Positions 5,717-8,595 of a stretch of DNA of 8,595 bases are shown here, one piece after another. Source of the DNA: a virus. Lineage: Duplodnaviria; Heunggongvirae; Uroviricota; Caudoviricetes. Location: IMG/VR virus record IMGVR_UViG_2778261121_000002. One strand, written 5' to 3'. Within the stretch, counting starts at the first letter, position 1. Every line of letters starts with the position of its first letter. Both the position numbers and the translations under genes were made by a program. Below the pieces are notes generated by a model. It was not told where the DNA came from. It did not search any database and was given only the letters and a program-made list of their open reading frames with translations.

Positions 5717-5775
5717 CTGCTTTCCTCTTGTTTTCTTGTTGTTGTAATTATCGCAGTGTAGATAAGGTAGAAAAC
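5717..5775 (-). promoter_or_regulatory. Conserved promoter/leader module B
   Basis: Minus-strand reading: TGcGATAAT (extended -10), then TACAACAACAAGAAAACAAGAGGAAAGCAG, ATG. The -35 is weak. Confidence 0.5.
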
Positions 5776-5789
5776 AAATTGTTATCGGG

Positions 5790-5821
5790 TATAAGAAAAT
5801 GGCGCGGTTTACGCGCCATTT
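5790..5821 (-). terminator. Rho-independent terminator after the 5830-6225 gene
   Basis: 10-bp stem aaatggcgcg / cgcgccattt with loop gttta; on the minus strand it is followed by ttttcttat. Confidence 0.65.
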
Positions 5822-5829
5822 AAAGAGGA

Positions 5830-6225
5830 TTAAGCGAATACGCTTTCAGGGATTAAGGTATCAGCAGGAATGCCGGAGGTAATACGCAGACCGTACTGGC
5901 CAATCCAGGTGGTGCTGGTGTTCAGGCTGGAGGCGAATACGGTGTTAACCATATTCATCATGGTTTCAAACACCTCTTCATCAACCTGGCGGAAGTAGTT
6001 CTCGATTTTCAGCAGCAGCGGGTCAGTTGCATCGAGAATGGACTGGTATTGAGTCGCGTACTCGCCGCCGGAGGCATCACCTTTACGCACGATCGTACTG
6101 GCCTGTACTTCGGCACCAGTTTCGGTGTTGTACGTAACAACGGTGATTTTTGCCACATTCTTACCTTCGGCGGTTTCAGAGGCATAGTAAACATCAACTG
6201 TCAGTTTTTCGCGTTTAACGGTCAT
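5830..6225 (-). CDS. Hypothetical protein (131 aa), stand-alone transcription unit
   Basis: RBS ggag 6 nt upstream of ATG; its own near-consensus promoter upstream and terminators on both sides. Confidence 0.8.
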   Translation of the reverse strand: MTVKREKLTVDVYYASETAEGKNVAKITVVTYNTETGAEVQASTIVRKGDASGGEYATQYQSILDATDPLLLKIENYFRQVDEEVFETMMNMVNTVFASSLNTSTTWIGQYGLRITSGIPADTLIPESVFA

Positions 6226-6257
6226 TTCACTCTCCGTAGTGTATTGGTTATTTTTCT

Positions 6258-6286
6258 ATTCTATGATCGTAAGTATGTACTTACAA
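6258..6286 (-). promoter_or_regulatory. Near-consensus sigma70 promoter with embedded palindrome
   Basis: Minus-strand reading: TTGTAA, 17 nt, TAGAAT. The -35 and spacer contain the inverted repeat gtaagta-ca-tacttac (plus 6269-6284). Confidence 0.65.
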
Positions 6287-6287
6287 T

Positions 6288-6317
6288 ACAAAAAAGCCCC
6301 GTAAGGATGGCGGGGCT
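6288..6317 (-). terminator. Rho-independent terminator after the 6352-6663 gene
   Basis: 7-bp stem agccccg / cggggct with a 9-nt loop; on the minus strand it is followed by ttttttgtatt. Confidence 0.65.
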
Positions 6318-6351: not shown

Positions 6352-6663
6352 TCAGGCTATTGCCATCACTGATGCTCTCTGAATCTCTTGCTGGGCCACG
6401 CGGTTAACTTCCATCAAAGCCAGTTCGAGCTGATGTTCCGGCCACATTCTTTGAAATGCCACCCAGCCTTTTCCACGCTGGCGACGAACATTCATTACAT
6501 AACGAGTAAAGGTGTTTTTATCGAAAGACACCGCTGTTTCACGGAACAGACGAATAGAGGTTCCATTGGCAACGATGTCCAGCAAAGTTAATTGAGCAAC
6601 CAGCGCAGGCTTCTCTTTTCTCTTCTGGTCTTTGTCCAGACCAAGAACCAATGATTTTTTCAT
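6352..6663 (-). CDS. Hypothetical protein (104 aa)
   Basis: Start taken at the ATG preceded by RBS acggag. The upstream in-frame ATG at 6693 lies inside conserved module C and lacks an RBS. Confidence 0.7.
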   Translation of the reverse strand: MKKSLVLGLDKDQKRKEKPALVAQLTLLDIVANGTSIRLFRETAVSFDKNTFTRYVMNVRRQRGKGWVAFQRMWPEHQLELALMEVNRVAQQEIQRASVMAIA

Positions 6664-6728
6664 CACAACTCCGTAAACAACTTGTTTTCTCAATGGCGTA
6701 AATAATACCAGTAAGAAAACGGCTACAA
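6664..6728 (-). promoter_or_regulatory. Conserved promoter/leader module C
   Basis: Minus-strand reading: TTGTAG, 15 nt, TGgTATTAT, then TTACGCCATTGAGAAAACAAGTTGTTTACGGAG..., ATG. Confidence 0.55.
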
Positions 6729-7147: not shown

Positions 7148-7212
7148 AAAGCAATCCTTAAACAACATGTTTTCTTGATGGTGTTATTATCGCAATAACG
7201 CATAGGCGAAAA
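7148..7212 (-). promoter_or_regulatory. Conserved promoter/leader module D
   Basis: Minus-strand reading: TGcGATAAT, then AACACCATCAAGAAAACATGTTGTTTAAGGATTGCTTT, ATG. Confidence 0.55.
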
Positions 7213-7473: not shown

Positions 7474-7646
7474 GCCGCAACTTTCCCTCTCGCTATACCG
7501 GTACGCCACCGTTCCTGAAACGGCATCGAGCCTTCTCCCGAAATCCACACAGGCAACTCGACCGTTTCCCTGAAAATCCCCAGCCGTTCCCCGAAGGCAA
7601 CCCAGCCGTTTCTGTAGCGGGATGCAACCTTTTCCCTGTATGGACG
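7474..7646. repeat. Iteron array 2: about seven direct copies of CCGTTTCCC(T)GAAAA-like units with 22-bp phasing
   Basis: Copies begin near 7476, 7509, 7531, 7562, 7584, 7606 and 7628 (spacings 33, 22, 31, 22, 22, 22), e.g. accgtttccctgaaaatcccc, agccgttccccgaaggc, agccgtttctgtagcgg. Confidence 0.65.
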
Positions 7647-7689
7647 AAGGCTGACCGTAGGGGTGTTACGGGGGATAAAATCAGGAGTT

Positions 7690-7724
7690 GAATAAATACG
7701 AAAAAGGAGGCGACACCCCTCCTT
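7690..7724 (-). terminator. Orphan intrinsic terminator on the minus strand
   Basis: 7-bp stem aaggagg / cctcctt with a 7-nt loop (plus 7704-7724); on the minus strand it is followed by tttcgtatttatt. No credible ORF lies upstream of it. Confidence 0.5.
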
Positions 7725-7756
7725 CCCTCCCCACTTATACATACCTGTCTTGTTCG

Positions 7757-7790
7757 CTATACATGTTGTGTTTTCTTCGTGTTTTATCTG
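7757..7790 (-). promoter_or_regulatory. Degenerate fifth copy (module E) of the conserved promoter/leader motif
   Basis: Minus-strand reading: GATAAA-ACACGA-AGAAAACA-CAACATG. It shares the AGAAAACA core but has different spacing and no downstream gene. Confidence 0.3.
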
Positions 7791-8245
7791 TTTCAACCTC
7801 TCTATAGGCGTTAATGCTCACTCCTTCCAGAACGTTCTATACGGCGACTATTTCTGTTGGTGAATTGGGTGTGTTGTTTCCCTGTCGGTGTATGTGGTTT
7901 CGTTAGTTTTGCGGTGGTTCTTCTATGGGGTGTTCTCGTCGTTTTGGTGATTGTTCTTCTCCGTGTATGGAGTAATAGCAGGTGGGCGATTGCTTTCGTT
8001 ATTGTGTTTGAGTTGTTTGACTGGAGTGTGTGGAAGGCTTTTGTAGTTATTCGTGTATTGGGTAATGGCATTTCCCGTGATTGTTATGTTTCGTGTCTTT
8101 TGGGATTGAGAGAAGCCTTGCGGTTACAGGCTTCGTTGGGGTTTCAGCGGTTCAGGTGTTTCTTCGCTGTTTGGGTAATGGCGTGTCGTGGGTATCGCGC
8201 GTATGAATGTTTTCGGATTGCCTGTGAAAGTTAGGTTGGTTGTCC

Positions 8246-8310
8246 GGTAGCCTGGGGAGAAGAGGTGGGTCTTTTCGGTAGCCTGCCATAAAGAGGTTGG
8301 TTGTTTTTGG
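8246..8310. repeat. Dispersed ~70-bp repeat, copy 2 (internal sub-repeat cggtagcctg twice)
   Basis: Aligns with 5064-5135; see copy 1. Confidence 0.5.
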
Positions 8311-8322
8311 AAATAGCATTTG

Positions 8323-8339
8323 TGTTATTTAGTTGTTTT
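8323..8339. repeat. 17-bp direct repeat tgttatttagttgtttt (second copy at 8554-8570)
   Basis: Identical 17-mer at both positions with similar flanks (ttat follows both). Confidence 0.45.
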
Positions 8340-8500
8340 GTTATGCCTGAAAATAAGTTGTTTATACGGTTGTGTAACGCAACGGGAGCGATTTTGAGCG
8401 TGTGTTTTTGTTGGTAGTGTGTTGGGTCGTCTGTGGTGAAAATTGGACGCTGTGGCGCTGTCTGCTGCGTAGAGTTACGGGTATAAGAAATGATGTGTGA

Positions 8501-8545
8501 AAACGTCAATTTTTTAGACCAAATCGGGTGAAAGCGTTGACGTTT
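8501..8545. other. 9-bp inverted repeat aaacgtcaa / ttgacgttt separated by 27 bp
   Basis: Perfect inverted repeat. The loop is too long for a typical terminator, so it is more likely a protein-binding dyad. Confidence 0.4.
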
Positions 8546-8595
8546 CGTTGATCTGTTATTTAGTTGTTTTCTTATTTGTATAAACAACCATAACC

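Follow-up and report, generated by a model that had tools for sequence, protein, structure and literature searches.

The DNA analysed here (8,595 nucleotides, called the window below) carries on its minus strand a gene for a 131-amino-acid protein, accompanied by terminators, a predicted promoter and a 16-bp palindrome (Table 1). The 700 bases around this gene matched 228 plasmid records, nearly all of them from Escherichia, of approximately 100-112 kb and typed as non-mobilizable, and the same bases also match phages Cyrano, CMS-2020a, PhiR41_1 and SSU5, as well as Klebsiella relatives. Since both plasmid records and phages of the SSU5 type are matched, the source of the window is, as judged from these matches, an SSU5-like phage-plasmid of E. 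coli. The window corresponds to 94.4-102.4 kb of the Cyrano genome in reverse orientation, and orthologues of the 131-aa gene are CYRAN_107 in Cyrano and SSU5_114 in SSU5. The family of the encoded protein has no function assigned, and the protein is annotated as hypothetical in all records.

Several other features of the window deserve a mention. A full-length homologue of FljA, the phase-1 flagellin repressor, is encoded at 1244-1765 on the plus strand (Pfam Flag1_repress, E = 2e-79) and is kept in both Cyrano (CYRAN_114) and SSU5 (SSU5_121); a regulator of flagellin expression residing on a phage-plasmid could change host motility or H antigen. An HNH endonuclease domain (Pfam E = 4.9e-5) was recognized in the 271-aa protein encoded at 23-838 on the plus strand, for which weak PADLOC matches to HNH and type IV methyl-directed restriction models were obtained. 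At the opposite end, the region 7600-8595 includes approximately 900 nt of extreme strand bias, with plus-strand GC skew reaching +0.46 and AT skew of -0.39, the minus strand being A+C-rich and poor in G and T. Open reading frames called there (e.g. 8231-8587, the equivalent of CYRAN_103) resemble low-complexity artefacts, and the RNA-seq level of CYRAN_103 is at the detection floor. An Rfam gathering scan across the window gave zero matches.

Table 1. Elements of the transcription unit of the 131-aa gene (window coordinates)
Feature	Position	Strand	Description
Upstream intrinsic terminator	6317-6290	-	AGCCCCG / 9-nt loop / CGGGGCT followed by T6; terminates the upstream gene (6352-6693)
-35 hexamer TTGTAA	6286-6281	-	From promoter scan; its last 4 bases are the first 4 of the dyad
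16-bp dyad GTAAGTA-CA-TACTTAC	6284-6269		Covers the last 4 bases of the -35 hexamer and 12 of the 17 spacer bases
-10 hexamer TAGAAT	6263-6258	-	Follows the -35 hexamer after a 17-nt spacer
Predicted transcription start	~6251	-	Deduced from the position of the -10 hexamer
Shine-Dalgarno sequence GGAG	6235-6232	-	6 nt before ATG; GGAG kept in relatives
131-aa open reading frame, ATG start	6225-5830	-	phrog_2473
Downstream intrinsic terminator	5821-5791	-	Stem AAATGGCGCG/CGCGCCATTT, loop TAAAC, then TCTTAT

The original prediction, a 131-aa gene with the promoter TTGTAA-17-TAGAAT, terminators on both sides and an inverted repeat overlapping the promoter, proved accurate as to the anatomy of the locus, as all these elements are present on the minus strand. 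The centre of the dyad lies approximately 25 nt 5' of the predicted transcription start. Both flanking hairpins have the properties of intrinsic terminators, namely a GC-rich hairpin that is followed by a T-rich tract and is more stable than shuffled sequences: the upstream one folds at -16.5 kcal/mol (z = -4.3) and the downstream one at -15.2 kcal/mol (z = -5.9). A simple terminator scan missed them both, due to the 9-nt loop in one case and the T-run lying partly inside the stem in the other. A hairpin with a T-tract occupies the position of the upstream terminator also in SSU5, Klebsiella and Kluyvera. In a group of related loci (L035-L040) the stem of this hairpin differs in sequence (GCCCACC/GGTGGGC), which indicates that its structure, and not its sequence, is conserved. 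The downstream terminator of SSU5 and Klebsiella has the stem kept and the loop variable. With hairpin terminators on either side and a conserved promoter of its own, the separately bounded single-gene unit is real.

The promoter hexamers resemble TTGACA and TATAAT and are separated by a distance within the 16-18 nt typical of sigma-70 promoters. To call this promoter near-consensus was nevertheless an overstatement: TTGTAA-17-TAGAAT agrees with the consensus at 9 of 12 positions, and the window contains 15 such matches against 19 expected by chance, so that this match alone is no better than chance. Its score with a position weight matrix (PWM) was 9.9 bits, the 95th percentile of random 100-nt windows being 7.4. 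What raises the promoter and the dyad above chance is their conservation in relatives and the recurrence of the dyad throughout the genome. We compared upstream regions from E. coli plasmids and viral contigs, SSU5, two Kluyvera contigs, a Klebsiella phage-plasmid and L035-L040, which gave 19 distinct variants from at least four genera, with protein identity down to 42% (L035-L040); a scan of genome contigs for related loci added the two Kluyvera loci only. TTGTAA was found in 18 of the 19 variants, the remaining one having TTGTAG, and the 17-nt spacing and a -10 hexamer of the form TAnnAT (TAGAAT, TAAAAT, TAATAT, TAGTAT or TACAAT) were kept in all 19. The 5 nt between the dyad and the -10 hexamer vary freely and differ in nearly every variant. 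Conservation of the -35 hexamer, the spacing and TAnnAT across these variants upholds the prediction that the 131-aa gene has its own promoter, and a real promoter of the sigma-70 type, located directly after the terminator and followed by the predicted start, is thus very likely.

This arrangement is absent from the distant homologues L121-L123, in which the upstream region is a different one. Prophages of approximately 50 kb also encode a homologue 36% identical to the 131-aa protein (L041, 2501-2932, with its neighbours). It has no promoter of its own there and sits in an operon between a gene for an HNH endonuclease and the genes for the small and large terminase subunits, at the head of the packaging operon.

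A 7-bp inverted repeat alone is unremarkable, and the window includes 28 short inverted repeats. The dyad at the promoter of the 131-aa gene is a zero-mismatch copy of RTARGTA-NN-TACYTAY, it is the single match in the window even when up to 2 mismatches are allowed (0.01 expected), and it extends to 10-nt arms with 90% complementarity. An initial search of the complete Cyrano genome with up to 3 mismatches gave 30 matches, nearly all intergenic, vs approximately 5.5 in shuffled sequences. The motif, RTARGTA and its complement 2 bp apart, was fixed by scanning gaps of 0-10 between the half-sites. At gap 2 and with at most 1 mismatch, the whole Cyrano genome holds 25 matches vs 0.1 in shuffles, and its intergenic DNA taken separately 21 vs 0.03 (200 dinucleotide-preserving shuffles); the respective numbers are 31 vs 0 for SSU5, where the positions are orthologous, and 36 vs 0.2 for the Klebsiella phage-plasmid. 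As many as 23 of the 25 Cyrano matches are intergenic, intergenic DNA making up 13% of the genome. Gap 6 gave 16 matches in Cyrano, mostly the same sites with the register shifted by 4 bp, and each of the other gaps gave 0 or 1 match; gaps 2 and 6 are the sole enriched ones also in SSU5 and the Klebsiella relative. The search for the dyad elsewhere in the genome, proposed together with the original prediction, was thus positive, with 25-36 copies in each of three related phages, and it changes the meaning of the element: instead of being an operator specific to the 131-aa gene, the dyad is a single copy of a motif spread over the phage genome. A scan of viral contigs for the exact dyad gave, among the matches listed, scattered single ones, which were uninformative. 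Both the motif and the regulon that it would define appear undescribed, as no description was found in a limited literature search.

Among relatives, changes in the dyad of the 131-aa gene are confined to the R, Y and N positions, with one exception (L021). The two spacings of half-sites are also met at the orthologous promoter, which has the 7-6-7 arrangement in L035-L040 and 7-2-7 elsewhere, the left arm remaining fixed on the -35 hexamer. Two other descriptions of the element were rejected. A 20-bp palindrome model (ATARGTAAGTACTTACYTAT), obtained by PWM refinement, did not separate from shuffles at 14 or more matches out of 20, and it was superseded by the result of the gap scan, with 7-2-7 as the core and 7-6-7 as the second register. 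The host TyrR box is TGTAAA-N6-TTTACA with a G-N14-C frame; the dyad of the 131-aa gene alone fits it, as TGTAAG-N6-CTTACG (9/12), and most copies start with ATAAGTA and lack the G. Cyrano contains also a long inverted repeat, CCTGCTTCTGTATATA ... TATATACAGAAGCAGG around an AT-rich centre, in three copies (approximately 31160-31215, 78085-78140 and 108340-108379), which is distinct from the 16-bp dyad.

Units for capsid, tail, lysis, replication and nucleotide metabolism are preceded by dyads, and further perfect copies in Cyrano precede the tail gene CYRAN_12, CYRAN_31, the tRNA region, a gene for an SbcD-like protein and thyX. Roughly a quarter of the Cyrano intergenic gaps of at least 30 nt contain a dyad (19/78), and their distribution is uneven: 18 of 56 gaps in the core region (1-85.8 kb) and 1 of 19 in the accessory region (85.8-105 kb). 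The only dyad of this accessory region of approximately 20 kb is that of the 131-aa gene, and the neighbouring genes use a different, shared upstream cassette. This cassette of 26 nt (GCGATAATnACAnCAnCAAGAAAACA) occurs in the window at 5729-5754 and 7168-7193 on the minus strand (2 copies, chance expectation 0), and Cyrano has two copies as well (95780 and 97919). A small gene follows each copy, with its ribosome-binding site just 3' of the cassette, and near 6675-6700 there may be a degenerate copy. The cassette looks like an extended -10 element (TGcGATAAT) with a shared leader, i.e. a second type of promoter used by the neighbours of the 131-aa gene.

The positions of dyads relative to promoters were assessed by a simple PWM search around 22 Cyrano dyads, the promoter positions being predicted ones. 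At approximately 10 sites the spacer or the -35 region is taken up by the dyad, as in front of the 131-aa gene, and other dyads are located at or just after the likely start. Wherever a sigma-70 promoter was predicted, the dyads fell between approximately -35 and +20, and never 5' of the -35 element. A protein bound within these limits would block the polymerase, and the range does not correspond to any fixed position of an activator. Moreover, four Cyrano dyads end 11-17 nt before a start codon with the ribosome-binding site in between, which cannot be a position of an activator. A dyad-symmetric site placed over the -35/-10/start region, as expected of an operator acting by occlusion, is what we found at the 131-aa gene, and both its recurrence at other promoters and its conservation were seen in Cyrano, SSU5 and Klebsiella. 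Some dyads have a stop codon on one side and a GC hairpin on the other and are not accompanied by any obvious promoter, and many are found 0-20 nt 3' of the stop codon of the upstream gene.

A palindrome does not necessarily have a protein partner, and it might arise as a chance by-product of an AT-rich spacer with 4-nt periodicity, or act as a hairpin in RNA or DNA. The strand of the dyad indeed folds as a 9-bp hairpin (-8.2 kcal/mol, z = -2.9), and short inverted repeats are common in the window. A stem should, however, leave a trace in the variation of its arms, and covariation between the arms of the dyad was sought in the Cyrano and SSU5 copies with none seen. For the pair 1/16 in Cyrano the counts were 8 A-T and 4 G-C against 7 A.C and 3 G.T (Fisher p = 1.0), and with pairs 1/16 and 4/13 tested, the non-pairing combinations (A.C, G.T) were as frequent as the pairing ones, accounting for about half of the sites; in SSU5 the association between the arms was, if anything, negative. 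The arms vary independently within R and Y, and this indicates two half-sites read by a protein and not a stem. Enrichment of the dyad by hundreds-fold over composition-matched shuffles and the conservation of its specified positions also speak against a by-product without a partner, and in the case of the hairpin, the dyad lies 5' of the predicted start and hence outside the mRNA of the 131-aa gene itself. We therefore regard an origin without a protein partner as highly improbable. The dyad is rather, very probably, a selected protein-binding site, placed where a bound protein would block RNA polymerase.

Expression of the units headed by dyads can be followed in the RNA-seq data for the E. 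coli LF82/Cyrano lysogen, available as gene-level counts (PMC9928086 S1 table). In overnight LB culture, CYRAN_107 reached 17 FPKM vs the phage median of 9.8 (1.7x), with the cut-off for 'moron' genes at 49, and it is outside the 13 autonomously expressed genes (PMC9928086). Inside macrophages at 6 h, which is not a clean induction experiment, its level was log2 7.2, i.e. +3.4 log2 over the 6 h culture (approximately 10-fold), which ranks 11th among 123 genes, and a rise is shared by the major capsid gene, by tail genes and by other units headed by dyads. In this one data set with low counts, the first genes 3' of dyads were expressed in culture at a lower level than other genes, a group that includes plasmid-maintenance genes expected to be on (p = 0.002), and the former rose more in macrophages (median +1.76 vs +0.77 log2, p = 0.0006). 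For predicted promoters scoring at least 8.5 bits, units with a dyad (n=7) had log2 levels of 2.3-4.3 in LB and those lacking it (n=6) had 5.6-12.5, the two ranges showing no overlap. The description of the 131-aa gene as strongly expressed is thus not established, as approximately 17 FPKM were recorded in the plasmid state. As to its description as repressible, the gene is near-silent in the lysogen and rises approximately 10-fold together with many other phage genes, lytic ones included, and repression would be the presumed cause.

As to the protein that could bind the dyad, our best candidate is CYRAN_45, a 128-aa helix-turn-helix (HTH) protein encoded beside the integrase. It gives a weak match to Pfam HTH_19, and its level in the lysogen is 96 FPKM (PMC9928086). 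All E. coli and Klebsiella phage records obtained by tblastn against the phage collection contain a homologue of CYRAN_45, and at an overall identity of 56% its HTH segment is conserved. The gene of this putative repressor is preceded at 28-56 nt by a conserved dyad, ATCGGTAAG(T/C)ACTTACC, in both Cyrano (42603-42622; L030) and the Klebsiella relative (phage GArcari-2022b, 16836-16851; L246), which suggests autoregulation. On the other hand, homologues of CYRAN_43-46 (the integrase, the putative repressor and the two genes beside them) are absent from the first 100 kb of SSU5 (L124 and L125, 1-100000), and SSU5 retains 31 good dyads despite this absence. Either the loss of the module from SSU5 was recent, or the dyad is read by some other, conserved core factor. 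Half-sites at two spacings (7-2-7 and 7-6-7) are also odd for a rigid dimer.

Dispersed operators of temperate phages are a familiar kind of system, and the closest functional analogue of the dyads would be the operators of the P1 C1 repressor. It was shown that C1 binds 22 operators widely dispersed over the P1 genome, each being a 17-bp asymmetric sequence, ATTGCTCTAATAAATTT (PMC8546580). As in P1, we deal here with a phage-plasmid whose lytic functions are split into many units that would be separately repressed, with approximately 20-36 dispersed copies of the motif, and the dyads overlap promoters where these were predicted. Unlike the C1 operator, the motif found here is a symmetric 16-bp dyad of unrelated sequence, and because of this difference in symmetry and sequence it is not a member of the P1 C1 operator family. 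The structural genes of P1 are driven by Lpa-dependent late promoters and not by C1 operators, whereas the dyad precedes also capsid, tail and lysis units. These Lpa promoters have an inverted repeat near -22 and a standard -10 element, lack a -35 element and depend on the activator. The inverted repeat in front of the 131-aa gene is similarly placed between the -35 position and the -10 hexamer, with its centre in the low -20s, but a -35 hexamer at the optimal spacing is conserved there and many other dyads are found at or after the likely start. With this conserved -35 hexamer, and with offsets between the dyad and the -10 element ranging from -30 to +30, assignment to the Lpa-type late promoters was rejected.

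Operators of lambdoid CI and Cro, which are 14-18 bp dyads bound over the -35/-10 region by dimeric HTH repressors, offer another comparison. The 16-bp dyad likewise overlaps the core promoter, and for the binder there is a candidate of the small XRE-like HTH type, encoded beside the integrase and with a dyad before its own gene. Lambdoid operators, however, cluster at two control regions, with later genes controlled by antitermination, whereas the sites described here are scattered over approximately 100 kb and have half-sites at two spacings differing by 4 bp. KorB of the IncP plasmid RK2, a ParB-family CTP-dependent clamp, recognizes a 13-bp palindromic site, OB, present in about a dozen intergenic copies at variable distances from promoters, and provides global silencing. 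The dyad resembles OB as an intergenic palindrome dispersed over a replicon at variable distances from promoters; a ParB-type binder and action at a distance are features of KorB.

Taking these data together, we consider it probable, though with a modest degree of confidence, that the 131-aa gene belongs to a lytic regulon which is kept off in the plasmid state by a phage-encoded dimeric protein acting as a repressor at an operator present throughout the genome, both the binder and the repression being deduced indirectly. According to this model, the unit would be monocistronic, consisting in order of a terminator, a sigma-70 promoter, a short leader, the 131-aa gene and a second terminator, with the promoter firing at approximately 6251. 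The dimeric protein, possibly the small HTH protein of the CYRAN_45 type encoded beside the integrase, would occupy core promoters through the dyads and would keep the units headed by them off while the element replicates as a plasmid. Upon induction, the 131-aa gene would be released with other members of the lytic regulon, being the only dyad-controlled unit in the accessory region.

A dyad that overlaps the promoter of the 131-aa gene and occurs once in 8.6 kb might suggest a dedicated regulator controlling this gene alone, and such was the impression given by the window; with 25-36 copies per genome at orthologous intergenic positions in three relatives, we find this hardly credible. Activation in place of repression has more in its favour. 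A phage factor of the lytic cycle, similar to Lpa of P1, could bind the spacer or the -35 region and switch the promoters on. In approximately 10 cases out of the 22 in Cyrano, a hexamer similar to the -10 element, often TATCAT or TATCTT, begins 13-21 nt 3' of the first base of the dyad, and the centre of the dyad is then near -22 to -26. Several of these sites have no good -35 element. Retention of all the dyads in SSU5, which has no homologue of the putative repressor within its first 100 kb, would also agree with a positive role, and so would the fact that the units rising in macrophages are those headed by dyads. Nevertheless, the 131-aa gene and the best-scoring sites have good, conserved -35 hexamers at the optimal 17-nt spacing, so no activator would be needed there, and the geometry between the dyad and the -10 element is not fixed. 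At least 4 dyads have the likely start on one side and the ribosome-binding site on the other, a location that an activator site at -22 could not have. Finally, predicted promoters of equal strength are active in the lysogen when they lack the dyad and silent when they have it. In the light of these facts, activation through the dyad seems to us unlikely, although it deserves attention.

The main task of the binder could also be other than promoter control, for example coating or bridging of DNA in the manner of ParB, KorB or nucleoid proteins, or the dyad could be a signal for module boundaries or recombination. Palindromes of 16 bp are typical of sites for ParB-family proteins, the phage encodes two ParB-like proteins (CYRAN_119 and CYRAN_120), and a dyad is located 17-21 nt before the gene of the first. 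The frequent occurrence of dyads within 20 nt after the stop codon of an upstream gene, and in some cases before a GC hairpin, would fit this possibility as well. However, the association with units that are silent and then rise, and with predicted core promoters, would not be expected of a purely architectural site, and no obvious HTH was seen by eye in the ParB-like proteins. We judge such a function to be quite improbable, and repression of a lytic regulon through dispersed operators remains our preferred explanation.

Taken alone, a small phage gene with a repressible promoter would be ordinary. Phage-plasmids related to SSU5 are common in E. coli, Salmonella and Klebsiella, and their regulation is essentially uncharted; the dyad provides a concrete map of which units are co-regulated, and it points to a candidate repressor gene. 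The 131-aa gene, an orphan of the accessory region, would belong to the lytic programme, and its function could then be sought among fewer possibilities. A bolder proposal, which we put forward only tentatively as one that may well prove wrong, is that the dyads constitute the DNA code of an undescribed master switch of phage-plasmids of the SSU5/pHCM2 type, in which one protein reads a 4-nt-periodic (nTAn) array, accepts both 7-2-7 and 7-6-7 arrangements, and keeps approximately 20-35 units, the 131-aa gene among them, together as one on/off regulon. These phage-plasmids are widespread in Enterobacteriaceae and can carry resistance genes. If true, the switch would represent an unusual mode of recognition and would offer a direct handle on the lysis-lysogeny circuit of this family.
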